A DNA stretch of 64,000 nucleotides from a bacterium (GTDB lineage Bacteria; Bacillota; Clostridia; UBA1381): assembly GCA_030536655.1 (NCBI GenBank), contig JAUNPN010000001.1:20559-84558 (forward strand), read 5' to 3'. The notes beneath the pieces are model-generated. The model was not told the DNA's origin and did not search any database. It saw only the letters and a list, made by a program, of their open reading frames with translations. A program made the position numbers and the translations under genes. Of the stretch, positions 21,052-40,967 are shown piece by piece. Position 1 is the first letter of the stretch, and every line of letters starts with the position of its first letter.

Positions 21052-21426
21052 TTAAGGCTTAAAATTTCTACTCTCATATCTCTTTTTTCGGATATAATCA
21101 GCCTTTTGTTTATTCCACACGATTTTTCGGCATTTATCACAATATTTTGAATTGCGTCCTGTCGGCGTATATTCATTACCGCAAACTGTACATTTTTTCC
21201 TGTTCTTCGGCTTCATCAGCCGTATGTATAAATCGTTATCATTCGGCAATACCGCTGTTCTGAACCATTTACAATTAAGGGAATAAGAAATACTTTGAGG
21301 GCAGATGCAAGGCTCGCCGTCGTCAAGTAAAATACAATTCCCGTCAAAATAGTTGCAGCATTGATTTTTTATAAGCGCCTTACACCGACGCGCCTGTTCA
21401 GGCGTCATTCGTATAATATCACTCAT
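21052..21426 (-). CDS. Cysteine-rich VLP-family ICE protein
   Basis: 124 aa. NQCCNYFDGNCILLDDGEPCICPQSISYSLNCKWF plus a C-terminal CTVCG...CDKC. Confidence 0.7.
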   Translation of the reverse strand: MSDIIRMTPEQARRCKALIKNQCCNYFDGNCILLDDGEPCICPQSISYSLNCKWFRTAVLPNDNDLYIRLMKPKNRKKCTVCGNEYTPTGRNSKYCDKCRKIVWNKQKADYIRKKRYESRNFKP

Positions 21427-22856
21427 AGCGTTTCCTCACGCGGCTTTTTCTGCGGCTGCTGTTCGGATTTTGGGCGTTCATTGGAAATAGCCCTTAACTG
21501 TTCCTTAATTGACGGCTTTTTATCAGTATTATTGATAATTCCGTTAGCTTGATTAAATTTCTCGTCTGAATATCCCTGTTCATATTCAACAGATGTTACT
21601 CGATATTCAGACGGAATATATATGGTATTACCCTCATATACCTTTTTAAAATCTGTACAACCGGGTTTTAGATATACACCGTTTATTAGCTTTCCGCCCT
21701 CGCTGCGTTCCGTTTCCATAGCATAGGCTTCTAAATCGAAGTATTCGCATAATTCACCCAAAATAATGTCTTTGTCTAAAAGCATATTGCGCCCCAAGTC
21801 GTCATAATCAGAAATTTCGTGCCAAACATCATAATACTCGGTATTATAAGTAAGATTTATTGCGTCTATTACATTTTTACATTTGCCCGCTTCAAGTGCT
21901 ATTTGAAAGACAGCCATTTCTACATCTTCCAATGCCGATATACGCATAGCAAGATAATTTAGCGCGTCAACACTCTCGTATTGACTAAAACACTTTTTCA
22001 AATCATCATTGCCGCAAGCGTAATCATCAAAAAAGTATGTGTCGGGACTTGCATTTTCAGACAAGCCTATTTCCGCAAAGGTTCGTTTGACGGTTTCCGC
22101 GTCAGACGGAAAGTATAGCCAAGCGCCGCTTGTTTCCTTGTTTCCGTTGTCATATTCAAAGCTATTGACGATAAACGCCTTAAATATATAGTCGCTCATA
22201 TTATTCACTCCTTTTTCGGTTATTTGTTTTTTAGACGGTTTAATTTTGTATTCTGGCGGTATATTTTCAACAACACCGTTATATTTGATTTTGAAATCAG
22301 TAGATACTCTTTCCAAATAAACATCACTTAAAAAATAACCGCCATTACGCTCGGCGTAATCTTTTCCGTATGCTGCATAATCAATATAATCCGCCAAATC
22401 ACCAATAACCCCAACGTCAAATCCCTGTTGTTCTGCAATATACGAGCCAACATTTTCCCAACTGTACATATTATAAACAAGATTATAACAATCTATATTA
22501 TGTGCAAGATTTATAATGCTCGCTATATTTGCAGTATGTTCCTTTGTTTCAATAACTGCGTCAAATGTATTGCGTTCTGTTTTATTCATTCCACCTAATA
22601 GGACAGAAAGGTAATTTAATTCATCAATAGCCGCTTTTTTGGGGAATACCGTTTCATTATCACCACTTTTATATATATAATCATCAAAGAAATATGTATC
22701 AGGACTTGCATTTTCGGATAGTCCTATTTTGGCAAGGGTATTTTTGACAGCTTCCGCGTCTGTCGGGAAATACAGCCAAGCACCGCTTGTTTCCTTGTTT
22801 CCATTGTCATATTCGGAACAGTTGACGATAAAGGCTTTAAATATATAATCGCTCAT
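21423..22856 (-). CDS. ardA: Tandem double ArdA-like antirestriction protein (two fused modules)
   Basis: Start moved to MSDYIFKAF (22856). MSDYIFKAFIVN..EYDNGNKETSGAWLYFP.DAE...SPDTYFFDDY occurs twice (modules 22200-22856 and 21423-22199). The fold-level pattern matches the single ArdA at 25648-26433. Confidence 0.75.
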   Translation of the reverse strand: MSDYIFKAFIVNCSEYDNGNKETSGAWLYFPTDAEAVKNTLAKIGLSENASPDTYFFDDYIYKSGDNETVFPKKAAIDELNYLSVLLGGMNKTERNTFDAVIETKEHTANIASIINLAHNIDCYNLVYNMYSWENVGSYIAEQQGFDVGVIGDLADYIDYAAYGKDYAERNGGYFLSDVYLERVSTDFKIKYNGVVENIPPEYKIKPSKKQITEKGVNNMSDYIFKAFIVNSFEYDNGNKETSGAWLYFPSDAETVKRTFAEIGLSENASPDTYFFDDYACGNDDLKKCFSQYESVDALNYLAMRISALEDVEMAVFQIALEAGKCKNVIDAINLTYNTEYYDVWHEISDYDDLGRNMLLDKDIILGELCEYFDLEAYAMETERSEGGKLINGVYLKPGCTDFKKVYEGNTIYIPSEYRVTSVEYEQGYSDEKFNQANGIINNTDKKPSIKEQLRAISNERPKSEQQPQKKPREETL

Positions 22857-22860
22857 ATTA

Positions 22861-23076
22861 TCATCTATCCTCCATATCAATATCAGGTTCAAGCTCCAGC
22901 TTAGAAAATTCATCATTCGTCATACGCTCCAGCTTGTCAATAACCGTTTCCGTAATTTCCTTTAATTCCATATCTTCAATGTATGGAACAGAAAAGCGGA
23001 GCTCTTTTAAAAGCTCCGCCTTATCAGATGTATCATAAATACACATCAAATTTATTTCGTCCTGTGAAAATGTCAT
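22861..23076 (-). CDS. Transposon-transfer assisting (TTRAP) family protein
   Basis: 71 aa. FSQDEINLMCIYDTSDKAELLKELR is the family signature. Confidence 0.7.
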   Translation of the reverse strand: MTFSQDEINLMCIYDTSDKAELLKELRFSVPYIEDMELKEITETVIDKLERMTNDEFSKLELEPDIDMEDR

Positions 23077-23807
23077 AGTGAAATATCCTCCTTTTTTGGT
23101 GTTTTCGATTTTGTCGGTTCTGATTTATCCTTATTTTCCGCAAGCTGCTTTTTGATTGACGGCTTTTCCTCTGAACGCTCTTTTATAATGGCATTGTACA
23201 ATTCCACATCAAACAAAGTTCCTTTTCCCATTCCGTAATCAAAGGCAAGTTCCATAGCGTCAATCACGCCTTTTTTTTCGTCTTGTGTCATTTTAACTAA
23301 CTTTTCCTTAACAGCGCGGGCGGTTAGTCTGTCAATATACTTTGAAATATCGCCGCATTTCAGCTTTTCGAGCCGCTTATGTTCGCACGATAGAGTGAAT
23401 TTCAATTCTTCACTTGCGGAAACATCATCAGGATTTACAGAAACATTTATAACGTGATTAAAATGCTTCGTATAATCCAATTCATAGAGATTACCTATAA
23501 CGCAGTCCGTTTTTAAATCCTTAACTTCAATGGCATAAGCGAGAATTTTATCGTCTGTCTGTTGTCCGTAAAATTTCCAAGCGTTATGTGCAAAGGTATC
23601 TTTTGTGAAAACCTCGCTTTCACGAAAACAGTATGTACCCTTTGGACGCGACATAAACAGTAGTCTTTTTTTGTCGGGATTATTGCTTACAGCGGCTTTA
23701 CTCATTGTTTTTATGTCATATTCAAAATCGTTTTTATAATAATCCGTATTCGTATTCATTATCTGACGCAGAACATAGACTAAATTTACATTCTCAAACT
23801 TCTGCAT
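23073..23807 (-). CDS. Hypothetical ICE protein with a KPSIKKQL tail
   Basis: 244 aa. Tightly packed in the operon. I recognised no family. Confidence 0.55.
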   Translation of the reverse strand: MQKFENVNLVYVLRQIMNTNTDYYKNDFEYDIKTMSKAAVSNNPDKKRLLFMSRPKGTYCFRESEVFTKDTFAHNAWKFYGQQTDDKILAYAIEVKDLKTDCVIGNLYELDYTKHFNHVINVSVNPDDVSASEELKFTLSCEHKRLEKLKCGDISKYIDRLTARAVKEKLVKMTQDEKKGVIDAMELAFDYGMGKGTLFDVELYNAIIKERSEEKPSIKKQLAENKDKSEPTKSKTPKKEDISL

Positions 23808-23810
23808 AGC

Positions 23811-25589
23811 TTAAACCTCCAACGCTGCGCTTTTAACCTTTTCAGATTTTTTCGACTGTTTATCCGCCTGCGCCTTTGCTTCTGCCAACTGCTTTTTGAT
23901 AGACGGCTTTTTCTTAGACGGCTCCTTTTTGGTAGGCGTTTTGTCTTTCTTAACTTTTTCCGCTTTATTTGCCGCGATAATATCCATAATAGCGACAGGT
24001 TCGCCGCTTTTCGCCTTTGCTTCAAGCTCGTCAATGGTAGGCGTATCTTTGGAATTGTCCTCCGGCTCAAATACTTTTGCGCCGTCCGCCGCGTCCGCTT
24101 CGGATAAATCGGTAAAATCATCATTACTGATATTCTGCTCTTTATCCTTGTTAAGCTCTGCAAGCTGTTCATCAATGCCGGATATAATTTCATCAGCCAT
24201 TTTCTGAATTGTTGCAAGCGAGCTTTCCAATTCGGGCGCTTCCTTGCTGCTGCTCCAGCCTGCAACATATCCGAATGTATAGTCGGAAGTATCAAGACCG
24301 TAACGCATACATACTGTAAATGCGACGCTTTCAGCTTCAACCTCTCTTGTATGACTGTCCTTGCGTTCCTCCGGAGGAATATCCTTTAATTCCTCATTTG
24401 AAATATCGTGTAATTTTGCATGCGCGACTTCGTGTATTGCCGTTTTCAGCGTTTGAAGCTCGCTCATATTTTCCTGAATGGCAATCCTTTTTTCCTCGCG
24501 ATGAAAATATCCTTTTGCGCCGCCCTCAATATTTTCAAAGGCTATCGGAACAGGGGATATTTTTTCAAGCGCCTTAAACATATTTTCATAATTCATTACA
24601 TCACCCTGCAACTCATCAACTCCAAGCTGGGGTAACGGTTCGCCGTCCGTCTGCGATACATCAAATACGGTTGTAACCTTATATGAGGGAATAGTAACGT
24701 CAATATTTTGTGTAAGCGGTTTTCCTGCTGCGTCATACATAGGTAAATGTGTGATTTTATCAAGTAATGGGATTTCCTGCTGCGTCTTATACGGCGACGG
24801 GGCAATAATGCTTATACCCGTTTCGCCGCGCTTCACCTGACGTTTAAAATTCTTCTGCCACGCACCGTAACCGGCTACCATAGCCGCGTCGGGCTTCTGC
24901 ATTAGAATTAAAAGAGTATTGCGGAAACTGTACTTATGGAATTTTGACATCACCGACAAATATTCCTTGTACTTATCGCTTGTGAACACATCTTTTATGC
25001 CCTCTTTCAAAATATCCGTTATTTCCTTTAACTTGTCTTTATGGTTTTTGCCTGTAAGTTTTATCGACTTTGCGCTGCTTTTCGGCGGCTCGGCGGTCTG
25101 TACCGCTGTTTGACGCATGCCGATAGCGTCAGCGTCAATATTTTTATCTGCCATTATATCAACCTCCTTGTTTTTCGTTATAATATCGGACAGCGGTTGT
25201 TCCCACCGCCGTCCGAAACCTCTTACAATCGTATTGTCATTTGCATTATTCGCCCTGAACATTTCAAGAGTATCAAAGCCCTTGTTAAAAAGCGACGGTG
25301 CGCTTGCTGGTACAATAGGCGCAAAATGAATTATTCCGTCCTTGTAGTCTTTGCCTGTTCCAACCCAGCCGCGTACAAACCGGTCAAAATCTTCTCTGAC
25401 GCCAATTTTGTGATGTTCTTCCGCGTGGCTGTAAAATATAGCGTTGCTTGAATACTGAACACCTAAAAGCAGCGTTCCCGTTTGTGGACTATACATAAAA
25501 CGGCGGTTTTTAATATCCTGCATATCGAAATATTCCGTGTTCGTGTCTATGTTCATAAGCCCCCGCACAATCTCAATTTTTCGCTTCAA
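23811..25589 (-). CDS. ArdC-like ssDNA-binding / zincin metallopeptidase antirestriction protein
   Basis: YSFRNTLLILMQKPDAAMVAGYGAWQKNFKRQVKRGETGISIIAP is the ArdC N-domain. HEVAHAKLH is an HExxH motif. The true start may be MNIDTN at 25556. Confidence 0.75.
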   Translation of the reverse strand: MKRKIEIVRGLMNIDTNTEYFDMQDIKNRRFMYSPQTGTLLLGVQYSSNAIFYSHAEEHHKIGVREDFDRFVRGWVGTGKDYKDGIIHFAPIVPASAPSLFNKGFDTLEMFRANNANDNTIVRGFGRRWEQPLSDIITKNKEVDIMADKNIDADAIGMRQTAVQTAEPPKSSAKSIKLTGKNHKDKLKEITDILKEGIKDVFTSDKYKEYLSVMSKFHKYSFRNTLLILMQKPDAAMVAGYGAWQKNFKRQVKRGETGISIIAPSPYKTQQEIPLLDKITHLPMYDAAGKPLTQNIDVTIPSYKVTTVFDVSQTDGEPLPQLGVDELQGDVMNYENMFKALEKISPVPIAFENIEGGAKGYFHREEKRIAIQENMSELQTLKTAIHEVAHAKLHDISNEELKDIPPEERKDSHTREVEAESVAFTVCMRYGLDTSDYTFGYVAGWSSSKEAPELESSLATIQKMADEIISGIDEQLAELNKDKEQNISNDDFTDLSEADAADGAKVFEPEDNSKDTPTIDELEAKAKSGEPVAIMDIIAANKAEKVKKDKTPTKKEPSKKKPSIKKQLAEAKAQADKQSKKSEKVKSAALEV

Positions 25590-25647
25590 TTCCTATCCAC
25601 TCCGTCAAATTCCAGATTAAACTGCGCATATCTGTTGTATAGGCATA

Positions 25648-26433
25648 TCATAGTGAAATATCCTCCTTTACCGGTTTTGATTTTTCAGACTGTTTATTTA
25701 TTTGTTCTTTTGCTTCCGCCAACTGCTGACGAATTGACGGCTTTTGTTCTGAACATTCTTTGACAATATGGGTATCTCTCGGAATAGCGCTAATACGGTA
25801 TTCATCAGGAATATCATCACGATTGCCGCTGTATATCTCGTTGAAATCACTTTGATTACATACAATATAACCGTAATCAGTAAACATACCGTTTTCATTT
25901 AGCGCCGTATCGCTTCCGTACTCTTTATAATCAATGTAATTTTCCAATGCTTTCAGTGTGTTCATATCATAACAGCCCACTTCATTGATAAGGTAATATC
26001 CCAAATCATACTCGTCTGTAATACTCGGATATACCTCGTAGCAATCAAGATTTTCAGTTAGATTTATTAAATCCTTTACACTGTCCGAATGTTCACCCAT
26101 TTTAACGATAGCCTTAAAATGCTGCACTTCCGAGCCCGACATTTCATCTAATCTGCCTGCGAGATAATTTAATTCGTCAAGGCTCTCATATTCGCTCAAC
26201 ATATCATATATCCCGTCAATATAACAATCATAGTCTGTAATAAACCATTCCTCATACGGCGAACCGAATACATCTTTTGAGCCTATGCCTATACGCCTAA
26301 ATACATCTTGCATTTCATCAGGAGTAACAGGGAACTTTACCCATTCGCCTACTAAATATCCCTCGTTATATTTTCCAAGATTAGTAACAAAGGCGGCCAA
26401 GTGAAAATCCGGTGTGATTTCTGTATCTGCCAT
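25648..26433 (-). CDS. ardA: Antirestriction protein ArdA
   Basis: 261 aa. AAFVTNLGKYNEGYLVGEWVKFPVTPDEMQDVF...EEWFITDYD is classic ArdA. The protein is highly acidic. Confidence 0.85.
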   Translation of the reverse strand: MADTEITPDFHLAAFVTNLGKYNEGYLVGEWVKFPVTPDEMQDVFRRIGIGSKDVFGSPYEEWFITDYDCYIDGIYDMLSEYESLDELNYLAGRLDEMSGSEVQHFKAIVKMGEHSDSVKDLINLTENLDCYEVYPSITDEYDLGYYLINEVGCYDMNTLKALENYIDYKEYGSDTALNENGMFTDYGYIVCNQSDFNEIYSGNRDDIPDEYRISAIPRDTHIVKECSEQKPSIRQQLAEAKEQINKQSEKSKPVKEDISL

Positions 26434-26442
26434 ATATCAACC

Positions 26443-28506
26443 TCACTTTCCGTCAAATTCCAGCCTGAAATGTACATACTTATCGTTGCTGTCGATTAAA
26501 ACCACGTCCGCGTCATAGGTGCTATCCTTTTTCTCGGAATACAAGCCTTTTACCTTTGTTCTGCCTTTTGCGAGCAAATCTGCCGCAATTTTCTTTGTAA
26601 TCTCTTTTCGCTTATTCGTGAAAAACCTGTCATTTTTCCACATAACGAATTTACAGCTTTTATTAGCGCAATAAAAGTTATTTTTACTTTCGTGTACGTC
26701 TGAACCACAACGGGGACATATACCGATAACCTCACGCGGCGCACGGAATATCGCTCTGTCCTCGTCTGTGATGAATGAATATGTTTCAACAAGTTCTTTT
26801 GTCAAATCCTCAATTCCTTTCATAAACTGCTCCGGCGGGTAATTGCCCTTTGCAATCTCGGCAAGGTTATTTTCCCAATCGGACGTTAGAATAGGTGATG
26901 TGAGTTTTTCAGGAAGAACACTGACAAGACTTATTCCGTTATGAGTTGCAACAATAGACTTGCCCTTGCGTTCCGCAAATCCCGTCTGTACCAGCTTTTC
27001 TATAATCGCCGCCCTTGTCGCCGGCGTTCCCAAGCCCTTGCGTTCCGCTTCGTCCGTTGTTTCGGCGGCTCCCGCTGTTTCCATTGATGATAATAATGTG
27101 TCCTCCGTAAACGCTTTCGGCGGTGAGGTATAACCCTCTTTGACTTCTGATGAAACGGTAACGGTTTCGCCTTTTGTGATACAAAATACATCTTCGGCGC
27201 GGTCTGTGTCCGAATGAATATATCTTTTAAAAAGCTGTTCGATATTTTTCCAGCCCTCAAATAAAATGATTTTACCCTTTGCCGTAAACTGTACGCCGCC
27301 GCACTCCAAAACTGCGGTAATCGTTTCATACTCATACGGGGAATTAACCGCACATAACAGCTTGCACATAATAAGGTGAAGTATATTACTTTCGCCGTTT
27401 GGTATTTCCGCCAAGCTGATATTTTCAATTTCTGCCGTCGGAATAATAGCGTGGTGGTCTGATACCTTTTCATTATTGAATAAGCAGAATGTATCAGGCT
27501 TAAAATCCGTACAGTTTGAGAACGGCGCGAATTTTGACGCTATATGAACGATTTTAATTACTGTATTGTGCATATCGTCCGTTAAATATCTGCTGTCGGT
27601 TCTCGGATATGTAATCAGCTTTTGTTCATAAAGCGATTGAGCATAGTCAAGCGTCTGTTTCACCGTATATCCAAATATTCGGTTTGCTTCGCGCTGTAAT
27701 GTTGTGAGGTCAAACAGTTTCGGGGCGCCTGTTTTCTTTTTCTCTTTAACTGCACTAACACAAACGGCCTGCCTTTCGTGGCAAGCCGCTTGTAAATTCT
27801 GCGCTTCGTCTTTGTCGGAAATCTTATCGCTGACAGCCTTAATATTACCGCCGTCAATTTCAACGGTATAATATTTTTCTTTTTTGAACATTGAAATTTT
27901 GCTGTCCCGTTCTGCTATCATAGCAAGGGTAGGCGTCTGTACGCGCCCTATATTCAAATGCTTTCTATACAGTGATGTAAACAGCCTTGTTGCGTTTATA
28001 CCGATAATCCAATCGGCTTTTGCGCGGCATAAAGCGGAATTATAGAGATTATCATACTCGCGTCCGTCTTTAAGGTTATTAAATCCCTCGCGGATTGCGC
28101 TTTCCTCCATTGAGGAAATCCATAAACGGAAGTACGGTTTTTTGCAGCCGCACATATTATATACAAATCTGAAAATTAATTCGCCCTCGCGTCCCGCGTC
28201 GCACCCGTTTATAACTTCGGTTATGTCGTTTCGGTTCATTAAACCGCTGACAACCTTATATTGATTTTCCTTGCCTTTGTTTATGGCAAACTGCCACTTT
28301 TCGGGCAGGATAGGTAAATCCTCATATTTCCATACCGCGTATTTTTCATCATACGCCGCCGCGTCCGCCAAGCCTGCAAGATGACCGATACACCAAGTAA
28401 TGATATATCCGTTTCCCTCAAAATATCCGTTTTTCTTAGCGGTTATGTTTAAAGCCTTTGCGTAGCTCTGGGCTACTGACGGCTTTTCCGCAATTACTAA
28501 TTTCAT
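26443..28506 (-). CDS. topB: DNA topoisomerase III (type IA)
   Basis: 687 aa. Toprim start MKLVIAEKPSVAQSYAKAL, active-site region ITYPRTDSRYL and a C-terminal zinc ribbon CPRCGSDV...CANKSC. Confidence 0.92.
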   Translation of the reverse strand: MKLVIAEKPSVAQSYAKALNITAKKNGYFEGNGYIITWCIGHLAGLADAAAYDEKYAVWKYEDLPILPEKWQFAINKGKENQYKVVSGLMNRNDITEVINGCDAGREGELIFRFVYNMCGCKKPYFRLWISSMEESAIREGFNNLKDGREYDNLYNSALCRAKADWIIGINATRLFTSLYRKHLNIGRVQTPTLAMIAERDSKISMFKKEKYYTVEIDGGNIKAVSDKISDKDEAQNLQAACHERQAVCVSAVKEKKKTGAPKLFDLTTLQREANRIFGYTVKQTLDYAQSLYEQKLITYPRTDSRYLTDDMHNTVIKIVHIASKFAPFSNCTDFKPDTFCLFNNEKVSDHHAIIPTAEIENISLAEIPNGESNILHLIMCKLLCAVNSPYEYETITAVLECGGVQFTAKGKIILFEGWKNIEQLFKRYIHSDTDRAEDVFCITKGETVTVSSEVKEGYTSPPKAFTEDTLLSSMETAGAAETTDEAERKGLGTPATRAAIIEKLVQTGFAERKGKSIVATHNGISLVSVLPEKLTSPILTSDWENNLAEIAKGNYPPEQFMKGIEDLTKELVETYSFITDEDRAIFRAPREVIGICPRCGSDVHESKNNFYCANKSCKFVMWKNDRFFTNKRKEITKKIAADLLAKGRTKVKGLYSEKKDSTYDADVVLIDSNDKYVHFRLEFDGK

Positions 28507-29154
28507 TTATATATCGTCCTCCGTTTCATCTTCTGTATATGTATCGTCCTCGTTTTCGGTTTCCTCGTCCTCGCCGTCGGTAAATTCAAAATCTTCCAAA
28601 TCGGGGGCGTTTTCCATATTCTTTTTGGGAAGATAAACCTTAAAATAATATATACCCAGCCCACCGATAGCCGCAATAGCAATCAGAATAAGCATTATAT
28701 TTGAATTGCCTGACTTTGATTTATCGGTTTTCGGTGCGGTTTCTGTCTTGCCGTCCGGCTCCGCTGACGGCGACGCCTGCGCCTGCGGCGTAGGGCTTGC
28801 TTTTACTGCTGCGGATACTGCCGCGCTGTTTTCCTTTGCAAGCGCTTCGAGGTCGGATATATCAACCTTATTCAAGAAATATACATTATCGTTTACATTC
28901 TGCTTGTCGATAACGATAAAAAATACGCTGCCGTCCTTTGCGGTTACGCTTATAAACTGCAATTTATCACTGTCGGAAATGTTGTCTACAACGTGCCCCG
29001 CGCCTGCGGTTGATATGGTACGCGACGGCTTCGGTGTTTCCGTTGCCGCCGGCGCTGCCGCTGTACTGTCATAGTTTGCGTGTGCGGTTATTCCGCACAT
29101 TCCGCCAAAGCATAATAAAGCTGCTGATAATATCGCAATAATTTTATTCTTCAT
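28507..29154 (-). CDS. DUF4366 / CD1107-family mobile element surface protein
   Basis: Start moved to MKNKIIAIL (AGGAGGA upstream). It has a signal peptide, a FISVTAKDGSVFFIVIDK core, a C-terminal TM segment and an acidic tail. Confidence 0.75.
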   Translation of the reverse strand: MKNKIIAILSAALLCFGGMCGITAHANYDSTAAAPAATETPKPSRTISTAGAGHVVDNISDSDKLQFISVTAKDGSVFFIVIDKQNVNDNVYFLNKVDISDLEALAKENSAAVSAAVKASPTPQAQASPSAEPDGKTETAPKTDKSKSGNSNIMLILIAIAAIGGLGIYYFKVYLPKKNMENAPDLEDFEFTDGEDEETENEDDTYTEDETEDDI

Positions 29155-29422
29155 TCGTGCCGTCCTCCTGCTGCTCGTTTTCTTCAATAGCCTTTAATTC
29201 CTCCTCGTACTCGTCGGGAAGAAGAACATCACCCTTTGCATACGCGCTTAAAAGTACGGTAAGCTGGGGAGTGCTGAGCTTAACAGCCTTAACGAGATTT
29301 ACAATCTGCAAATTCTCGGCTTCGACTTTCTGCGCTTCAAGATTGCGTAATTTCTGCTGATACTCGCTTATCTTCGCTTTTGTTCTTGTAATATCCTTTT
29401 CAATTTTTTCAAGTGTTGCCAT
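29144..29422 (-). CDS. DUF4315-family coiled-coil protein
   Basis: 92 aa. MATLEKIEKDITRTKAKISEYQQKLRNLEAQK...IVNLVKA. Confidence 0.7.
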   Translation of the reverse strand: MATLEKIEKDITRTKAKISEYQQKLRNLEAQKVEAENLQIVNLVKAVKLSTPQLTVLLSAYAKGDVLLPDEYEEELKAIEENEQQEDGTNEE

Positions 29423-29443
29423 AATTAAAATACCTCCATAATT

Positions 29444-29887: not shown

Positions 29888-29888
29888 A

Positions 29889-32447: not shown

Positions 32448-33245
32448 TTAAAGTTCGGGACTGCTGCGCTTTTTTGTCTGCGCCGGTTCCGTCTTGTTTT
32501 TCTCTGACGCCTTAATTGAATTTAACTCCTTGCGGATTGACGGCTTTTTATCTGCGCTTCGGCTGATATTTTCCGTCTTTGCCGCTTCCTGAGCTTTTTG
32601 CATTTTCTCTGTAACATATCCGGGTAGAAGATGTTCGTGTACCATAAAGGATTTTTCATATTCTTTCGGAATGGGCGGGGAAATTTCCGTGAATAAATGT
32701 GAATAGGCTTTTATTCTGCCTTGTATATATTTTTCCGCTTCCGCCTTATCCTTAAATGAGCGTTCTTGTTCTGCAATACAGTTATTATGACCAACTGGAC
32801 TATTTGTGCCAATAGACCATTTCACTTCCCAGCGTCTTGTTTTTTCTGAACGCCAGCTTGTGTAATCATACATACGGTATGTCATTTTATATACCATATT
32901 ACTGATAGATGTACAATCGTGGTTATAACAATCTCTGTCGTTTACCCATTTATTTGAAGAATGCGAAACCTCCGGTACTTGCAAATACTCAATAGCCCTG
33001 TCAAATTGTCTTGTAATTGCCGCTTTTTTTTCCCAATCCCGCGCTGACTGCCGTACTTTTTCAAAGGCGGCTGTTTCTTTTTTGACGTTATTATCACGCA
33101 TAGCCTGTATTTTTTCAAGCGGTTGTGAAATCAAATTCAATATATCGGTTTCATTAACGATTATGGTATGCTCAACTTTAAGTGTGGCGCCGGCTGATAA
33201 ATCGTCATTTTCATAAGTACGGTAATTATCGTAATCTTTGTACAT
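32448..33245 (-). CDS. Hypothetical ICE protein with a KPSIRKEL tail
   Basis: 265 aa, in-operon position. I recognised no family. Confidence 0.55.
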   Translation of the reverse strand: MYKDYDNYRTYENDDLSAGATLKVEHTIIVNETDILNLISQPLEKIQAMRDNNVKKETAAFEKVRQSARDWEKKAAITRQFDRAIEYLQVPEVSHSSNKWVNDRDCYNHDCTSISNMVYKMTYRMYDYTSWRSEKTRRWEVKWSIGTNSPVGHNNCIAEQERSFKDKAEAEKYIQGRIKAYSHLFTEISPPIPKEYEKSFMVHEHLLPGYVTEKMQKAQEAAKTENISRSADKKPSIRKELNSIKASEKNKTEPAQTKKRSSPEL

Positions 33246-33439
33246 ATATACCTCCTGACATTTTTATTCTAATTCCTTTAATCGGATAGGACTTACAATC
33301 TCATAGCCGCGTCTTGCGGCAAGCTCGGCAATATCGGCAATCAGCTTTTTCCGTTCCTCACGTTCAACATTCCTGATTGCCTGATACGCCGTCAAATCCT
33401 TGCACCCGCTGCCGTTAAGAAAATCCTTGTTTTCTCTGC

Positions 33440-34459
33440 TTATATCAGTTCACCTCCAAATTCACAATATTTTTTACATCTTCCCGTCTCAATATCTGAA
33501 ATAAATTTAAGTATAGGAAATACCTGCGGAGGACATACGGCATTACCTAAGGCTTTCAGTCTGTCGGCTCTGCCGTCCGTCCTGTCCGTAATTCTCGGAA
33601 TATCCTCCGGCTCGTTTAGCCACAGCTTAAATCCGTCCATTGCTTCGGGAACCCCATTAACCATTCCACCCAATCGGGATTGAGCGCCGCCGTCTCCGAC
33701 TGCGGCTGTTCCTCTAATATCACCTGCGCCGCAAGGTTCGCCCTGTCCTTGCTTTTCCTCATTACCTCCGGCGGAAATTTTGACCTTATCCCGTCCGACG
33801 CTACCGGCGTCATATAGAACACCGCCGCCGACAGCGGAAGGCTCCAGATTGCGCCGTTTTTGTTCTTCTTCCGAAATATCCCGTTGTCTGAAAGATACAC
33901 ATTCATATTTACAGCCGCCGTCTGCTTTTTGTTGTTGTCGGAGGCAAGCGGAGTGGGAAACATCAACGCCGACGATAAAAGTTCTTGTGCGCTGATGCCA
34001 CGCGCCGACACCGCAAGCTGGTAATACGAATGTTTGAACAGTGTAGCCCGCTTTTTCCAAGTCAAAAATCGTTTTGTCGAGCCCCATATTGATGAACCCA
34101 GCAACATTTTCGCCAAGCACCCAACGGGGCTTGAGCTCTGTAATGACGCGGCACATTTCAGGCCACAAGTAGCGGGTATCTTCAAACCCTTTTTGTTTCC
34201 CCGCGCTTGAAAAGGGCTGACAGGGAAATCCGCCGCTAATGAGGGTAACGCTGTTTCGTCCTGTTTTTTCAAAAAATACCTCCTTTGTTAGAGTTGTAAT
34301 ATCACGAAAGCGGGGCACGTCCGGCCACCGCTTTTCAAGTATGGAAGTCTGGAAATCCGCCCATTCACATTGACAGACGGTTTTAAACCCCGCCGCTTCT
34401 GCGGCGAGGTCTATTCCGCCTATGCCGGTAAACAGACTTAAATGTGTTAAATCATTCAT
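33440..34459 (-). CDS. DNA (cytosine-5)-methyltransferase, orphan
   Basis: 339 aa. Motif I LSLFTGIGGIDLAA, motif IV GGFPCQPFS and motif VI ENV. No adjacent restriction endonuclease. Confidence 0.9.
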   Translation of the reverse strand: MNDLTHLSLFTGIGGIDLAAEAAGFKTVCQCEWADFQTSILEKRWPDVPRFRDITTLTKEVFFEKTGRNSVTLISGGFPCQPFSSAGKQKGFEDTRYLWPEMCRVITELKPRWVLGENVAGFINMGLDKTIFDLEKAGYTVQTFVLPACGVGAWHQRTRTFIVGVDVSHSACLRQQQKADGGCKYECVSFRQRDISEEEQKRRNLEPSAVGGGVLYDAGSVGRDKVKISAGGNEEKQGQGEPCGAGDIRGTAAVGDGGAQSRLGGMVNGVPEAMDGFKLWLNEPEDIPRITDRTDGRADRLKALGNAVCPPQVFPILKFISDIETGRCKKYCEFGGELI

Positions 34460-36890
34460 TTTTCTGTATTTCCTCCGGCTTCGTCGTCATATACGAATAC
34501 AGTTTAAGGTCTTTCGGGAAACGGTCTACAAACGGGATAATAACATTTCCGTAGAATAAAAGTCCCTCGCCCTCGTTACTCTGCGTTACATACGATAATT
34601 GGTGAGGGGATATATTAAGCTGCTTCGATAAAATCTGTCTGTCGCCGCCTGCCTGATTGAGCATATAGATAAAATCGGAATTTTCAAAAATATTCTCAAT
34701 CTCTCTTGAAGATAACAGGTCTTTTACATTCTGCGTTATGCCTGTCGGAATACCGCCCCATTTACGAAAGCGTTTCCAAATCTCAACCGAATATGCCGCC
34801 GTCTGTTCTTCCTTTAACAGTAAATGAAATTCGTCTACATAATACCGCGTCGCCTTATGCTCCGCGCGGTTAATTGTTACTCTGTTCCATACTTGGTCTT
34901 GAACAATCAGCATACCCAGCTTTTTAAGCTGCTTTCCGAGTTCCTTAATGTCATAGCAGACAATACGGTTATTCACATTTACGTTTGTACGGTGATTAAA
35001 CACATTCAGCGAACCGTTTACATACAAATCAAGCGCTGACGCGATACGCTGCGCTTCCGGCTCCGGCATAGCTTTAAGCTCGTTATATAAATCTTCCAAA
35101 ATCGGCATTTTGGACGGTTCGGGATTAGCGAGGTACGGACGGTATATATTTATAACCGCTCTGTCAATCACGCTTTTTTCAATCGGTTCAAGTCCGTTCT
35201 TGCCGCCGACAATAAGCTCACACAATGAAAGTATGAAATCTGATTTTAATTGTACAGGGTTTTCATCTTCCGAATAGTTGAGGTTTATATCCATAGGGTT
35301 GATATAATCGCGCGAGTTCGGGGAAATTCGTATAATCTGCCCGTCAAGCCTTGATACAAGCGGCGCGTACTCCGCTTCCGGATCGCATATAATTATATCG
35401 TCCTGCGTTACCAAAAAAGCGTTTGTAATCTCTCTTTTCGCTGAAAAAGACTTACCGCTTCCGGGTGTACCCAAAATCAAGCCGTTAGGATTTTTCAGGT
35501 TCTTGCGGTCAACGAGTATCATATTATTTGACAGCGCGTTTAGACCGTAATATAACGCTTCGCCGCTTGCCTGAAAAAGCTCTTGTGTGGTAAAGGGTAC
35601 AAAAATAGCGGTGCTTGATGTGGTAAGCCCGCGTTGTATCTCTATTTGATTTAAACCGATAGGCACGCTTGACATTAGCGCCTGTTCCTGCTGGAAGTCA
35701 AGACGCTTTAATGCACAGTTATATTTTTGAGCGATACCCTGCGCCGCGAAAAACATATTATCAAGTTTCTGTTTGTTATCCGCCGTATTCATTACAAGAA
35801 CAGTAACAAGGAACATTCTTTCGTTTCTGCTCTGCAACTGCTCTAATAAATTCTTTGCTTCACCTCCGAATGTGGCAAGGTCTGACGGTATAATATCCAT
35901 ATCATAACCGCTTCTGACCGCCTTTTTCTGTTCCTCAATCTTCATCTTGTCAAGGTCGGTAATTTTCCGCTTGACTGTCTTTATAGCTTCCGACTGGTCG
36001 ATAGACTTAATATGAATATTTACGCCTATCCCCATATCAAGGTCGAGGAAATCCGCAAGCATACGGTCTGTAAGCTCCGGCGCAAGTATCTGTAAAAACG
36101 ATACCGTTCCAACTCTGCCGCCCATTCCAAACGTGCGGCTGTCGCGGAAATCAAACGAGGTCGGGGCGATAAAGTCCTTTGAGGAAAGCCCCGTCTTATG
36201 TACCAAATCCCAATGAAAGCCGAATTTGTCTTTTTCGCCCTCATTGAAAGTACAATGTAGAAGCTCTAAACGCTCTAATCCGTTAAGCGGTCTTGCCTGT
36301 ACGCCAAGAGCCTTGAAGTTGCCGAGTATATCCGTTTCGATACGCTCTAACTTCTGCTTAGCCGCCTTTAAGTTATCCGCTTCAATTCCAAATGTGATAA
36401 ATTTGCGCTTTATAATACCGTTATTGCCGCGCGACAACTGATTTTTGAGCATACCCATATACTCAATGCGTATGTCATTAAAATTGTCTGCCTGTTCGGG
36501 AATATGTACGGCTTTTTCATACTCCGCCATATCGACAGTCTGATTGAGGAAAGAAAACTGTACAGAAATTGACTGGTCGAAATAGTTAAGAAAATCGCAG
36601 TAGTTTTCAAATATCTCGTTTTTATCCTCATTCCTTGCAAGCTGATAATTTATATCGAAAAACTGAATTGTTTTTGTAAAATAATTATCCTTGACTTTAC
36701 ATATCCCGTCCGGGTACATTTCCTTATATGGAATAGTCTGCTGTGCTGACGCTGCGCGCCTGCCCTGCATTTGCGCTTTTCTGATAGCTGCCGCAATAGC
36801 CTTTTTCTGTCGTGCTGAAAGCGGCTTATTCGCTGATATTATGTGCTTTTTCTTTTGTTTTGGTCTTGTGTTTGTATTCTGCTTCGGCAA
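34452..36890 (-). CDS. VirB4-like conjugal transfer ATPase (CD1110 family)
   Basis: 812 aa. Walker A GTPGSGKSFSAKRE and Walker B region YYVDEFH. The start may be internal (ATG at 36770), because 36826-36890 overlaps PrgI. Confidence 0.9.
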   Translation of the reverse strand: MPKQNTNTRPKQKKKHIISANKPLSARQKKAIAAAIRKAQMQGRRAASAQQTIPYKEMYPDGICKVKDNYFTKTIQFFDINYQLARNEDKNEIFENYCDFLNYFDQSISVQFSFLNQTVDMAEYEKAVHIPEQADNFNDIRIEYMGMLKNQLSRGNNGIIKRKFITFGIEADNLKAAKQKLERIETDILGNFKALGVQARPLNGLERLELLHCTFNEGEKDKFGFHWDLVHKTGLSSKDFIAPTSFDFRDSRTFGMGGRVGTVSFLQILAPELTDRMLADFLDLDMGIGVNIHIKSIDQSEAIKTVKRKITDLDKMKIEEQKKAVRSGYDMDIIPSDLATFGGEAKNLLEQLQSRNERMFLVTVLVMNTADNKQKLDNMFFAAQGIAQKYNCALKRLDFQQEQALMSSVPIGLNQIEIQRGLTTSSTAIFVPFTTQELFQASGEALYYGLNALSNNMILVDRKNLKNPNGLILGTPGSGKSFSAKREITNAFLVTQDDIIICDPEAEYAPLVSRLDGQIIRISPNSRDYINPMDINLNYSEDENPVQLKSDFILSLCELIVGGKNGLEPIEKSVIDRAVINIYRPYLANPEPSKMPILEDLYNELKAMPEPEAQRIASALDLYVNGSLNVFNHRTNVNVNNRIVCYDIKELGKQLKKLGMLIVQDQVWNRVTINRAEHKATRYYVDEFHLLLKEEQTAAYSVEIWKRFRKWGGIPTGITQNVKDLLSSREIENIFENSDFIYMLNQAGGDRQILSKQLNISPHQLSYVTQSNEGEGLLFYGNVIIPFVDRFPKDLKLYSYMTTKPEEIQKNE

Positions 36891-37242
36891 TTATTTTGAC
36901 CTCCTTATCAAGTTTAATTTGGTTCATAATTGCCGAATACATATTATTTGTTTTATACGGTCTGACTCTCGGCGTCAAAAATCTTGACCGTATATAATTT
37001 CTTAAAATCTTTTCTGCCGGCTGTCCGTCCTTTTCGTACATAGCGAGGAAGAAGAACGGCAAGGCCGCGATTACAAGCGTCATAACCGCGCCGGTTGTGC
37101 CAAGCGCGCCGCGCGTAAGAAAGTATGTCGGAACAGCGACAGCGGCCGCAAGTCCAAAGCATATAAGCTGACGCTTCGTAAGGTTAAAAGCTACCTTTGT
37201 TTTTACGGTAGTTAAGTCTTTTGGTACGGGAACATAAGGCAT
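36826..37242 (-). CDS. PrgI-family conjugation membrane protein
   Basis: 138 aa. MPYVPVPKDLTTVKTKVAFNLTKRQLICFG plus two TM segments. Confidence 0.8.
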   Translation of the reverse strand: MPYVPVPKDLTTVKTKVAFNLTKRQLICFGLAAAVAVPTYFLTRGALGTTGAVMTLVIAALPFFFLAMYEKDGQPAEKILRNYIRSRFLTPRVRPYKTNNMYSAIMNQIKLDKEVKIIAEAEYKHKTKTKEKAHNISE

Positions 37243-37581
37243 TTACCGCGCCCCCTTATCCTTGTTTTTTCGCTTATTCTCAATAGCCGCGACTTTTTCG
37301 CGCGCCCATTCGGGTAAAAGCTCCGGCTTTAATATTCCGATAAAGTCCTGACGGTAGAAATGCACCGCTTCACCGTCCGAAAGAAATTCACCGTAAACCT
37401 TGCGCCCTCTTGCAGTAGGCGAACACCCAAAGCCGCCCGTACAATAGAATAGCTGAAACTCCGGCTTGCAGTATTCGTCGGATAAAATATCCGGTCTTAA
37501 TACCGCAACCTGATTTTTGAAATGAATGTTATCGTCCTTTATACAATGCGATTTATCATATAAAGGTAATGAATTTTCCAT
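37243..37581 (-). CDS. Conserved-looking small ICE protein, unknown function
   Basis: 112 aa, tightly packed between the VirB6-like and PrgI genes. Confidence 0.5.
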   Translation of the reverse strand: MENSLPLYDKSHCIKDDNIHFKNQVAVLRPDILSDEYCKPEFQLFYCTGGFGCSPTARGRKVYGEFLSDGEAVHFYRQDFIGILKPELLPEWAREKVAAIENKRKNKDKGAR

Positions 37582-37607
37582 ATAGTAATCCTCCTGTATT
37601 TTAATTT

Positions 37608-38477
37608 TTAGTGCGCGTTAAATATAGACTTCGACAGGCTTCCGGTCTTGAACAGGGAAAAGCATAGTACAACCGTATATGCCGCAATCGTGAATATGGT
37701 AGTATGCAGATTATTGGTTACAACAAAACCGTTTACCAACGCCGCATAAATGCCTACGCATACCATAATGAAAAAGCCCTGAAAGCCTAACGCCACAAGT
37801 CCGCGCAAATAGTTATTTCCCATTTGCCCCCATTCGCGATTAGTCATTGTCGCAAACGGGATAGCTCCAACCGAGCAATATAAATAAATCTCTATCATAC
37901 GTCCGAATATTACGACGGTAATACAAACGGATAGGATTTTCATACATAAACTAACAAGCGAGGTTTCCAAAACTAATAGGAACAGTTCGCCCATTCCCAT
38001 AGCTTCAAGGGTAGTTCGTATGTCGGCAAGCGCGGTTGATATATCAATGTTCGTGTTCGCACCGATTACCCCCGCGCTCTGCGTTACAACTCTCTGTGCA
38101 ACGTCAAATACCGCCATAGTAATGTCAAAGGTGTGGGTAACAATATAAATTGCTACCCCCGCCTTTAAGAAATATTTGAAGAACATAAATGTGTCTATAT
38201 CGTGCATATTGTTCTTTTCCGTAATCATAGTTATTAGCTCATAGCATAAGACAAAGGCTATAATAAGCCCCGCAATCGGCAGAATAACCGTCTGAGAAAT
38301 ATTCTGTATCAAAGAAAATATGCTTGCGTTCCAGCCCTGCGGCGTCTGTCCGACGTCCGCCGCAATCGTGGCGACTTTCTCATTTACGTCCGTAAACATT
38401 GTTGATAAACTACCCTCAATAAGCGAAATCAGAAAATCGCAAATCGCTTGTGTAATTTTATCAATTATTGAGTTCAT
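37608..38477 (-). CDS. VirB6/TrbL-like polytopic membrane protein (CD0415/CD1112 family)
   Basis: 289 aa, 5-6 TM segments. The N-terminus is MNSIIDKITQAICDFLISLIEG. Confidence 0.8.
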   Translation of the reverse strand: MNSIIDKITQAICDFLISLIEGSLSTMFTDVNEKVATIAADVGQTPQGWNASIFSLIQNISQTVILPIAGLIIAFVLCYELITMITEKNNMHDIDTFMFFKYFLKAGVAIYIVTHTFDITMAVFDVAQRVVTQSAGVIGANTNIDISTALADIRTTLEAMGMGELFLLVLETSLVSLCMKILSVCITVVIFGRMIEIYLYCSVGAIPFATMTNREWGQMGNNYLRGLVALGFQGFFIMVCVGIYAALVNGFVVTNNLHTTIFTIAAYTVVLCFSLFKTGSLSKSIFNAH

Positions 38478-38692
38478 CAGCTAAACAGCCCTGAGAGCAA
38501 GGGAACAAGTGTAGTTCCAATCAGCACGACGCCGCCGCCCGCCATAAGCTGTTTAATTCCCTGCGACTTTGCGCCGGGATTATCGTTACCATATCCCTCC
38601 AAGAGATTGACAACACCCCATACCGCGAGGCCTGCGCCTAACGCTATAACAAGGGTTTTTAAAACATTGACCGCTTCTGTGAAAAATTGCAT
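38477..38692 (-). CDS. Maff2-family mobile element membrane protein
   Basis: 71 aa. LVIALGAGLAVWGVVNLLEGYGNDNPGAKSQGIKQLMAGGG. Confidence 0.8.
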   Translation of the reverse strand: MQFFTEAVNVLKTLVIALGAGLAVWGVVNLLEGYGNDNPGAKSQGIKQLMAGGGVVLIGTTLVPLLSGLFS

Positions 38693-38712
38693 AAATAAAA
38701 TCCTCCTAAATT

Positions 38713-40482
38713 TTAATCTATCTTTTTTTCTTCGTCCGGCACATCTACATTGTAAAGGTCGAATTGTTCGTTTTCCTTTACAACTGCCGGCCTGCGGTTC
38801 AAAAATCGTTCAATGTCAAACTCGTTTTTCTTGTCTGCGTCTGATAAATACTTATAGCGCGGGTGCGCCGTTATATCGTACTTTTCAGACAAAAACGGAC
38901 GGACGCCCCTTAATTGCAAAATGCACTTGCCGCCGTCCATTACTGATAATTCGTCCTGCGTCATCAGCTCCTTTCCTAATTTCTGATAATTAAGTCCGTA
39001 AGACTTTTGATTACTTCGTGTTTCGGAAGTATTGTACATATCAATCGTTTCTTTGCCGAGCGTTTCGGAAATCTCTTTAAGAGTGGTTTTTTCTTTACCG
39101 CCGAGAAATAGGGTAGTATCGCAATTACCTATAATCGTGTCGGCGTTATCTTTGTAAATGGCTTTTAGCTGACTTTGCGCCTGCAAGATTATTGACGCCG
39201 ATATTTCTCGGCTTCGTATTGTGGCAATCAGCTTTTCAAATTTTGGTATTTGTCCGATATTCGCCATTTCATCAAGCAGAAATCTAACGTGTACGGGAAG
39301 TCTGCCGCCGTAAACGTCGTCCGCCTTATCACAAAGCAAATTGAATAACTGCGTGTACATCATAGCGACTATGAAATTAAAAGTGTCGTCAGTATCGGAA
39401 ATGATAACGAACAACGCCGTTTTCCTGTCGCCGATTTTGTCGAGCTCCAATTCGTCATATTCCATTAAGTCCCTGAGTTCCTTAATGTCAAACGGCGCTA
39501 ATCTCGCGCCGCACGAAATCAAAATACTTTTAGCTGTCTTGCCGGCTGCCATTTTGTATTTCTTATACTGCTTTACTGCGAAATGCTCCGGTTCCTTTTC
39601 TTCCAGACGGTCAAAGAGTAAATCAACGGGGCTTTTATAGTTCTCGTCGTCCTCTTTTGCTTCCGACGCGTTTATCATATCTAAAAGAGTTATGATGTTC
39701 TTTTCCTCGTCGGGCGCTTCGTACCAAATATAGCCTATGAGGGCGCAATAATACAGGCGTTCAGCCTTAACCCAGAAATCCTCACTTGACTTTTCGCCCT
39801 CGCCTTTGGTATTCGCAATAAGGGTATTAACGAGCTTCAAAATATCCTTTTCGCTCCTGATGTACTCAAACGGATTATATTTCATACTCTTTTTGAAATT
39901 TATCGTATTAAATGTTTTTATGATATATCCGCCTTTTTGTAACAGCTTCCCGCACTCAATTAAAACCGTGCCTTTCGGATCAGTTACAACATACGAGCTG
40001 TGCATTTGCATTAAATTCGGTTTTATGAAAAACCTTGTCTTTCCGCTGCCACTGCCGCCGATTACAAGAACATTCTTATTTCTTGCGTACTTCGGTATCT
40101 TTGGGCGGCTGTCCATTGTAAGCCGTTCCGTATTCGTGAGAAGAACATTATTATAGAAATTCTGTCCGTCAATATACGGGGCTATGTCTGACGCCGTACC
40201 CCAGCGCGCCGAGCCGTATTCAATGCCGTTTCGGTATTTCTTAGCATTTTTACCCCTGACATAAACCGCGCCTTTAATCAGAAGCGCGGCTATTACTCCG
40301 ATTGATATATCGGTTATGTGGAACGAAAAAAGCGGAGCTTTGTAAAACTCCGCAATTCCCTGAACCAGCGCTATTATTTTATTACCCTCTGTTATCCTGT
40401 ATATATAGCATATCTTATCAGCAATCCAAAAGAACAGAAGATACGGAATGTTTAAAAGAATAAACCTTTTGTCTATCCTCAT
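38713..40482 (-). CDS. Type IV secretion coupling protein (VirD4/TraG family)
   Basis: 589 aa. N-terminal TM segments, Walker A VIGGSGSGKTRF and Walker B region FLLDEMANIG. Confidence 0.9.
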   Translation of the reverse strand: MRIDKRFILLNIPYLLFFWIADKICYIYRITEGNKIIALVQGIAEFYKAPLFSFHITDISIGVIAALLIKGAVYVRGKNAKKYRNGIEYGSARWGTASDIAPYIDGQNFYNNVLLTNTERLTMDSRPKIPKYARNKNVLVIGGSGSGKTRFFIKPNLMQMHSSYVVTDPKGTVLIECGKLLQKGGYIIKTFNTINFKKSMKYNPFEYIRSEKDILKLVNTLIANTKGEGEKSSEDFWVKAERLYYCALIGYIWYEAPDEEKNIITLLDMINASEAKEDDENYKSPVDLLFDRLEEKEPEHFAVKQYKKYKMAAGKTAKSILISCGARLAPFDIKELRDLMEYDELELDKIGDRKTALFVIISDTDDTFNFIVAMMYTQLFNLLCDKADDVYGGRLPVHVRFLLDEMANIGQIPKFEKLIATIRSREISASIILQAQSQLKAIYKDNADTIIGNCDTTLFLGGKEKTTLKEISETLGKETIDMYNTSETRSNQKSYGLNYQKLGKELMTQDELSVMDGGKCILQLRGVRPFLSEKYDITAHPRYKYLSDADKKNEFDIERFLNRRPAVVKENEQFDLYNVDVPDEEKKID

Positions 40483-40967
40483 ATATCGCGCTCCTGTTCT
40501 TTGCGGCGGGCGCGGTCTTTCGGTTTGATAGTCTTTGCAAGCTCCCGCATTTGCGATAACATTTTACGGATTGACGGTTTTTCCCGTAACAGCTTTTGCG
40601 AATACTCCTGAAACGCCATATTGATTACATCAACATCTTTACCCTTGAAGAATACAAGGTACTTCGGCGGTTTCGTGGAATTATCCTTTTTCAAAGCATA
40701 GTCAAGTCCGTACTTTTTCGCCACTGGCTCAAAAGATTTTATATTTTTATTTGTTATCTCAATATTTGAAAGCGCCGCGCCTGACTCTACAAGCTGCTTA
40801 ATCGTCTGCTTACCCTGATAGCCTTTGTTTTTATTTTTCTGCTGCTGTCTTAGGTATTCACGAATTGCCGCCTGCAATACGCGCCCCGTCATTTTGGAGG
40901 CGCTTATAACTAACGCAACTGTTTTTTTATTGATTTCTTCCTGTATAGACATCACTCCTTGCAACAA
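40479..40967 (-). CDS. PcfB-family (DUF3801) conjugation protein
   Basis: 162 aa. GKQTIKQLVESGAALSNIEITNKNIKSFEPVAKKYGLDYALKKD...YLVFFKGKDVD. The start codon is uncertain (TTG at 40967 or ATG at 40952). Confidence 0.75.
   Translation of the reverse strand: MLQGVMSIQEEINKKTVALVISASKMTGRVLQAAIREYLRQQQKNKNKGYQGKQTIKQLVESGAALSNIEITNKNIKSFEPVAKKYGLDYALKKDNSTKPPKYLVFFKGKDVDVINMAFQEYSQKLLREKPSIRKMLSQMRELAKTIKPKDRARRKEQERDI

Follow-up and report, generated by a model that had tools for sequence, protein, structure and literature searches.

Six proteins encoded by an element that, judged by its backbone, is a Tn1549-family integrative and conjugative element (ICE) end in a common tail whose core reads K-P-S-I-[KR]-x-x-L. 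The element lies in 64,000 nucleotides of clostridial DNA (lineage UBA1381; contig JAUNPN010000001.1, positions 20,559 to 84,558), a stretch that we call, at its full length, the window. All six carriers are open reading frames (ORFs) of the minus strand, located where the original prediction had placed them (Table 1), and in each the proline stands 29-32 residues before the stop. We propose, with moderate confidence, that the tail acts as a positively charged amphipathic-helix tag that would dock proteins on VirD4, the coupling protein of the element's type IV secretion system (T4SS), for delivery to the recipient. The evidence in its favor is indirect.

Could the shared tail have arisen by chance? 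From the window's own residue frequencies, 0.024 matches to K-P-S-I-[KR]-x-x-L are expected in a six-frame scan, and six were observed; the same scan of the whole 64 kb found none beyond the six genes. If the six matches were placed at random within their own proteins, the probability that all would fall into one distance class four residues wide is about 5e-12. Because of these two results, chance is excluded as the source of the six tails. The carriers had been called unrelated, which slightly overstates the matter: two of the six are both ArdA proteins. Most of the labels first given to the proteins (ArdA, double ArdA, ArdC-like, PcfB and, beside them, the VirD4-type coupling protein) were confirmed by Pfam.

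One carrier, PcfB, has the tail as part of a recognized family. The window PcfB scores 141.9 bits against Pfam PF12687 (DUF3801), above the gathering score and over profile positions 2-131 of 131; the motif falls within this model at roughly positions 100-131, that is, at its C-terminal end. By Pfam, the other five tailed proteins are not DUF3801 members, and only the tail of the 261-residue ArdA gives a weak partial match to the last 30 DUF3801 positions (17.3 bits, against a cut-off of 24.1). Among 120 PcfB homologs of 55-97% identity, 111 have [KR]PS[ILV]R..[LI] at 31-33 residues from the end, the exceptions being mainly fragments. P and S are invariant across a 35-sequence PcfB alignment, and 39 PcfB-anchored genome loci from Lachnospiraceae and relatives encode a PcfB with KPSIHKRL or similar.

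The tail also recurs on other proteins of related elements. In the archetype, Tn1549 (on pMG2200), three proteins bear it: PcfB, a polyvalent protein of 1306 aa and a hypothetical one of 314 aa, the last being the ortholog of the window's 244-aa protein. A sibling element from metagenomes has five tailed genes inside 13 kb. The carriers seen so far are PcfB, ArdA, double ArdA, ArdA + DUF3846, ArdC-N + M78, LPD34, the 244/314-aa family, DUF3849 proteins, a 128-aa protein, a 520-aa protein, a 408-aa ORF of a Streptococcus agalactiae element, a YodL polyvalent protein and Mob_Pre relaxases; the tail thus occurs on Mob_Pre/MOBV relaxases and on at least 12 other protein families. The T4SS structural proteins, the topoisomerase and the Dcm methylase have no tail. 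When 122 sequences were translated in six frames (951,372 residues of ORFs), the strict motif matched 186 times; 174 of these matches stand 20-45 residues before a stop, and the 12 elsewhere comprise five copies of the Toprim motif and a remainder of spurious ORFs. A motif scan of metagenomes returned mainly PcfB tails and one sibling element, and a 36-column tail profile found one locus among viral contigs and, in large protein collections, only close relatives or fragments, the profile being too weak to gauge breadth. A tblastn search with one tail gave no match in a plasmid collection. We conclude from these comparisons that the tail represents the conserved C-terminal end of PcfB and is, as far as the sampled sequences indicate, shared across the family of Tn1549-like elements.

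Two further observations concern the limits of the motif. The Toprim active-site segment 'IAEKPSVA' of topoisomerase III (in the window and in loci L041, L043, L045, L063 and L066) matches the tail core in both peptide and DNA and is the sole recurrent non-C-terminal match to it. We judged this likeness a coincidence, and on the same ground set aside a match with one mismatch to the DNA core of the tails at 28475-28487, which encodes 'IAEKPSV' at the N-terminus of the window's topoisomerase. Separately, the Anaerococcus prevotii plasmid pAPRE01 encodes a second, shorter PcfB paralog of 128 aa (L045:11095-11481) that stops just before the tail position. A MobQ relaxase is encoded close to this short copy; pAPRE01 also has a full-length PcfB, encoded ahead of virD4.

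Relaxases are, as a class, established substrates of conjugative T4SSs, and they must be accepted by the coupling protein. We found the tail on proteins of about 480 residues with HxxR and HxDExxPHxH motifs in four loci (L002, L011, L013 and L026). Of 120 homologs, 111 show HxDExxPHxH and 80 carry the tail; those without a tail are mostly truncated, fragmentary or chimeric predictions. A near homolog, P0146, named 'plasmid recombination protein', matches Pfam Mob_Pre (PF01076) with 30.1 bits against a cut-off of 25.5; the L002 copy itself stays under the Mob_Pre threshold. A sequence search of the PDB with the relaxase gave no match. Its AlphaFold2 (AF2) model retrieved as top Foldseek matches the MobM relaxase domains 4LVM, 4LVK and 4LVI (probability 1.0, E about 6e-3, TM-score 0.52-0.60). 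By motif, family profile and predicted fold, then, the tailed proteins of about 480 residues belong to the Mob_Pre (MOBV) relaxases.

These relaxases are encoded by Tn4451-like integrative mobilizable elements (IMEs), which also carry a TnpX-like serine recombinase, TnpV, TnpW, a primase and a helicase, and which are inserted within virD4, directly downstream of pcfB, in Tn1549-family ICEs. Since a relaxase must be accepted by the coupling protein, its possession of the tail argues for docking. An IME relaxase that appears to copy the PcfB tail of its host ICE is the strongest in-silico argument that we have for a docking function.

One such insertion occupies L126:31-14940, and others (in L125, in L127 and at L002:10004-17861) likewise sit in virD4 right after pcfB. 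The IME of the L126 type encodes a TnpX-like serine recombinase, TnpV, Vsr, Dcm, an HpaII-type nuclease, the Mob_Pre relaxase, a primase, a DUF5906 helicase and TnpW. The gene of the coupling protein is interrupted by the IME, and only excision would make it whole again. In three database proteins (P0190, P0193 and P0203), the N-terminal ~340 residues of the Mob_Pre relaxase are joined to VirD4 domains. These are probably assembly or gene-calling chimeras at IME/virD4 junctions, the alternative being that they are real fusions.

How is the tail distributed over multidomain proteins? The polyvalent protein of Tn1549 strings together ArdA, ArdC-N, M78, LPD25, YodL and DUF4316; a single tail closes the chain at its extreme C-terminus. 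The window encodes the ArdA and ArdC-like modules by separate genes, each with its own tail; between residues 176-484 of the ArdC-like protein and residues 235-540 of the polyvalent protein, identity is 54%. One tag per chain, always C-terminal, is what an export or recruitment signal would predict.

Recruitment need not imply export. The tail could be a donor-side assembly tag: through one shared partner, which could be VirD4, the PcfB core or the relaxosome, it would gather its carriers in the donor, either at the transfer apparatus or on the DNA of the element. The founding carrier, PcfB, is a conserved backbone protein that is translationally coupled to virD4, and an amphipathic, heptad-like pattern such as that of the tail could form an oligomerization or hetero-association helix. 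In the AF2 model of the relaxase, a C-terminal helix, modeled with modest confidence, contains the motif and prolongs a long helical region, as an assembly helix might. However, assembly helices can sit anywhere in a protein, whereas a strictly terminal position and a single copy per polypeptide are typical of export signals, and there is no obvious task in the donor for anti-restriction proteins. We therefore think a purely donor-side tag unlikely, though still worth taking seriously.

The composition of the tail agrees with the docking tag that we favor. The consensus of 146 non-identical tails is [KR]-P-S-[ILV]-[RK]-K-x-L-x-x-[LM]-K-E-x-A-K, with hydrophobic positions at +2, +6, +9, +13 and +16 relative to the proline, the pattern of an amphipathic helix. 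In this set, the distance from proline to the end has a median of 32 and is mostly 30-36 residues, and the net charge averages +4.5 (range, -1 to +8); beyond the motif, 52% of the residues are K, E, R or Q. In location and charge, the tails resemble a VirB/D4-type C-terminal signal, which occupies the last ~20-50 residues and is net positive and hydrophilic. An AF2 model of PcfB (ma44f509b78bd; low confidence, pLDDT 62) has an alpha/beta core to residue ~120, followed by a K-P-S loop and a helix that begins at the isoleucine, so that P-S stands at the helix N-cap behind the core. A PDB sequence search with PcfB gave no match. Fold searches with the modeled core returned non-significant matches only (E > 0.1), mostly KH domains, several of them solved with single-stranded DNA. 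Single-strand binding by PcfB is possible on this model, as a lead and not as evidence.

Perhaps charge alone is the point of the tail? It could be a non-specific nucleic-acid-binding extension, similar to histone H1 or SPKK repeats, that tethers its carriers to the transferred strand (a piggy-back mechanism) or to DNA generally. The mean charge would suit such a role, some tails are H1-like (SPKKAAARTKK in Tn1549), most carriers act on DNA (for example, the relaxase and ArdC-N), and the weak KH-like matches of the PcfB core point the same way. However, an invariant P-S-[ILV]-x3-L core at a fixed distance from the C-terminus is superfluous for electrostatic DNA binding. Some tails are neutral or even negative, and ArdA, an acidic mimic of DNA, is not a protein that acts on DNA. 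We regard this explanation as improbable.

The extreme end of the tail has a different origin from the rest. The tail had been described as Lys/Glu-rich; the terminal Glu and hydrophobic residues are mostly set by the Shine-Dalgarno sequence and ATGA of the next gene, and we leave them out of the motif. The last 3-6 residues (..EDISL, ..LEV, ..GVEL, ..ERDI, ..QSR) are mostly encoded by the GGAGG of the following gene and an ATGA/GTGA overlap with it, at 21423-21430, 23073-23080, 25648-25655 and 40479-40486 in the window and at equivalent sites in related loci: a final L or I comes from NTA-TGA, a final R from CGA-TGA and 'LEV' from TTGGAGGTx. Hence, we rejected the notion of a bipartite signal with an acidic/hydrophobic extreme C-terminus.

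Might the whole tail be a by-product of operon compaction, with 3' ends encoding the next ribosome-binding site, or else a turnover or regulatory tag (a degron, or a protease or chaperone site)? Compaction does shape the last 3-6 residues, and C-terminal degrons are common in bacteria. The motif, however, lies about 90 nt upstream of the next start and not at the ribosome-binding site, and it is retained on terminal genes and on relaxases in other contexts. To our knowledge, the tail is unlike the ssrA-type degrons. Either origin seems highly improbable to us.

The tails are also alike as DNA. A 13-nt core, ATTGACGGCTTTT, recurs in all six, in four exact copies and two with one mismatch, as had been noticed at the outset. 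Such near-identity would be expected if the conserved entity were a DNA- or RNA-level element (a recombination site, a binding site or a regulatory RNA) incidentally translated as KPSI. Within the window the Pro and Ser codons are almost always CCG and TCA, yet across elements Pro is encoded by CCT, CCG, CCC or CCA and Ser by TCT, TCA, TCC or TCG while the residues stay constant; flanking synonymous sites differ even within the window. Because the codons vary between elements and the peptide does not, selection acts on the peptide, and the DNA core is a mere reflection of it. We rejected a nucleic acid element on these grounds: its probability is negligible, and it alone among the alternatives is clearly excluded. 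Inside one element the codons are uniform (CCC TCT ATC in all three Tn1549 copies), and the window tails are mosaic, the first half of the ArdA tail being like the tail of the ArdC-like protein and its end like that of the 244-aa protein. Uniformity and mosaicism together suggest copying of tail-coding stretches from gene to gene within an element.

In the mechanism that we favor, the conjugation systems of the Tn1549 family would use the tail as a portable address tag at the C-terminus. This tag would be built from a helix N-cap, [KR]-P-S, an amphipathic Lys/Arg-rich helix and some 15-20 further charged residues, and would dock on the T4SS's cytoplasmic face, most likely on the VirD4 encoded immediately downstream of pcfB. 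PcfB would sit on VirD4 via its tail as a resident partner, possibly as a relaxosome adaptor, an idea suggested by the lack of a tail on the ICE's own relaxase. The establishment proteins (ArdA, the ArdC-like protease, LPD34 and the polyvalent proteins) would be exported with the DNA into the recipient, and the relaxases of parasitic IMEs would have acquired the tail for acceptance by the coupling protein of the host ICE. VirD4 as the receptor, export itself and the adaptor role of PcfB are steps that we infer. The adjacency and overlap of pcfB and virD4 are circumstantial evidence for contact between tail and VirD4; the C-terminus of VirD4 is acidic and could complement the basic tail. In MOBP systems, the relaxase operon enters the recipient last. 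By analogy, the ArdA cluster, which adjoins the relaxase genes, would enter late, and protein made beforehand in the donor would then be useful.

Several observations weigh against the delivery-tag proposal. The ICE's own MOBP relaxase, its MobC and a Cys-rich VLP protein are tail-less; hence, the tail is not a universal requirement for substrates. No recognizable motif was found in pCF10, which has pcfB-virD4 and an ArdC-like protein, so the motif is not general to all PcfB-containing systems. In distant PcfBs, K-x-S/T-[IL]-xxx-I takes the place of KPSI; together with natural replacements of the proline (RSSI, RTSI, RESI and RVSI), this reduces the core to a Ser cap and two aliphatic positions. 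In both AF2 models, of PcfB and of the relaxase, the pLDDT of the tail is only about 50-65. As a conserved backbone protein, PcfB fits a donor-side structural role as well as it fits export, and for Gram-positive T4SSs the transfer of proteins other than relaxases is hardly documented (PMC12857230). The suggestion with which this work began, that the tail is a recognition tag for the T4SS or its coupling protein, nonetheless remains the best-supported reading of a segment that is C-terminal, basic, present once per chain and found on relaxases, even though the MOBP relaxase does without it.

Similar signals have been described elsewhere. Agrobacterium VirB/D4 substrates carry C-terminal positive signals, as listed for VirF, VirE2, VirE3 and the final 48 aa of the relaxase MobA (Vergunst et al. 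2005, as reported in PMC10025392); these 48 residues of RSF1010 MobA are described there as a VirB/D4 signal like that of the Vir effectors. By that account, the Agrobacterium signal is, like the tail, short, C-terminal, net positive and portable, and is found on unrelated proteins and on a mobilization relaxase. It is read via VirD4, which is the presumed reader here. As summarized in the same source, it is a loose Arg-rich signal with no fixed motif, in a Gram-negative system with eukaryotic targets, whereas the tail has a sharp [KR]PS[ILV]xxxL at 30-36 residues, belongs to monoderm elements and is a putative signal. The XVIPCD of the Xanthomonas X-T4SS and the BID domain with its charged tail of the Bartonella Beps are likewise conserved C-terminal modules on diverse effectors that are recognized by VirD4, and BID also occurs in relaxases. 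However, XVIPCD and BID are folded domains of ~100-140 residues, whereas the tail spans ~35 residues and is probably a single helix. The E-block of Legionella Dot/Icm substrates resembles the tail in occupying the C-terminal 20-35 residues and in being rich in charged and polar residues; it is acidic and is read by the DotM/IcmSW adaptors, whereas the tail is basic and its acidic end residues are largely encoded by a ribosome-binding site. Two descriptions come closer to the carriers themselves. The PF12687 model contains the motif at its C-terminal end, with neither function nor portability annotated for the segment. Polyvalent proteins (Iyer et al. 2017, PMC5512222) have the same modules (ArdA, ArdC-N, M78, LPD34 and YodL) and are predicted there to be delivered along with the DNA; a term search of that article found no mention of a shared C-terminal tail or delivery signal.

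The assignment of the host element rests on gene order. Pfam annotation of the window gave, in sequence, DUF6017, a 1741-aa putative surface protein, pcfB, virD4, maff2, virB6/TrbL_2, prgI, virB4, a C5 methylase, LPD34, NlpC/P60, DUF4315, CD1107 and topoisomerase III. Past the ArdA cluster are the mobilization genes (Table 1) and a large serine recombinase (1574-3277). This backbone order matches that of Tn1549 on pMG2200, and the same backbone has been reported for Faecalibacterium ICEs (PMC12084326). By this order the element is a Tn1549-family ICE, and its six tailed proteins would be the backbone protein PcfB and five proteins of the variable 'establishment' region, in which Pfam recognizes the polyvalent-protein modules ArdA, ArdcN, Peptidase_M78 and LPD34.

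Table 1. Tails, their genes and associated features of the ICE (window coordinates)
Feature	Gene	Tail or feature	Strand	Remarks
Tail of double-ArdA protein, KPSIKEQLRAISNERPKSEQQPQKKPREETL*	21423-22916	21423..21518	(-)	PcfB-type tail; double ArdA by Pfam
Tail of 244-aa protein	23073-23807	23073..23165	(-)	No Pfam family; ortholog of the Tn1549 314-aa hypothetical protein
Tail of ArdC-N + peptidase M78 protein	23811-25589	23811..23909	(-)	Domains by Pfam
Tail of single-domain ArdA	25648-26433	25648..25743	(-)	Domain by Pfam
Tail of LPD34 protein	32448-33245	32448..32546	(-)	Domain by Pfam
Tail of PcfB/DUF3801	40479-40967	40479..40580	(-)	Domain by Pfam; stop codon overlaps virD4 start
VirD4-type coupling protein		38713..40482	(-)	T4SS-DNA_transf, TraG-D_C, TrwB_AAD_bind; proposed (inferred) receptor of the tail
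T4SS core: Maff2, VirB6/TrbL_2, 112-aa protein, PrgI, VirB4		34452..38692	(-)	Tail-less
MobC/NikA-like protein and MOBP relaxase of the ICE		16412..18117	(+)	Both tail-less
112-aa protein		37243..37581	(-)	Natural tail-less variant; homologous to the C-terminal half of tail-bearing DUF3849 proteins

Some other genes of the window deserve mention. The 112-aa protein, encoded between virB6 and prgI, is 48% identical to the C-terminal half of DUF3849 proteins (L025:5133-5927). A 16-residue deletion takes out exactly 'KPSVKKQLAELPKQPK', the segment with the KPS motif, and the DUF3849 domain is also gone; the protein is a natural copy without a tail, possibly in decay. Between the relaxase and the ArdA cluster, a minus-strand gene (19273-20349) encodes 358 aa with an N-terminal hydrophobic segment, a metallo-beta-lactamase fold domain and a C-terminal Ada-type zinc-binding domain. 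Cargo at 5243-15589 looks metabolic, with a glycoside hydrolase of family GH95 (fucosidase-type), a member of the phosphofructokinase family, a 1874-aa protein and an AraC regulator; together they suggest glycan utilization of a kind typical in gut Clostridia. Three very large ORFs, at 41412-46637 (minus strand, 1741 aa), 47919-54032 (minus strand, 2037 aa) and 54715-61620 (plus strand, 2301 aa), probably encode surface proteins. The first of them lies inside the ICE between DUF6017 and pcfB, where Tn1549 has only a small DUF5348 gene.

How much of this is new? A search of literature outside subscription journals found no published description of the tail or of the function of PcfB, and in an account of ICEs from Faecalibacterium pcfB appears as 'not defined' (PMC12084326). 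The tail, as conserved within the PcfB family, is already embedded in PF12687; its portability onto other proteins and its putative role in docking or export are not yet described in the literature that we found. C-terminal T4SS signals are known as a kind. This one is unusually sharp and would be the first for a monoderm conjugation system. We tentatively suggest, as a possibility that we would not yet call probable, that in this tail a Gram-positive conjugative T4SS has its first defined signal for protein translocation: one that would define the injected set of anti-restriction and other establishment factors, explain the partnership of PcfB with VirD4, be mimicked by IME relaxases and be usable as a tag of ~35 residues.

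In enterococci, vanB vancomycin resistance is borne by ICEs of the Tn1549 family, which are also very common among gut Clostridia. All complete ICEs in a set of Faecalibacterium genomes belonged to this family (PMC12084326), and nearly all known functions of Gram-positive T4SSs are confined to DNA transfer, according to a 2025 review (PMC12857230). A sharp and portable motif opens two matters to direct test: how substrates are selected by Gram-positive T4SSs, and whether these systems export any proteins besides relaxases. It gives a candidate function to PcfB, an uncharacterized backbone protein, and a sequence rule for predicting the set of injected proteins and the IMEs that these elements can mobilize. 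If the proposal is true, the tail may also offer a delivery tag of ~35 residues for engineering gut Firmicutes.

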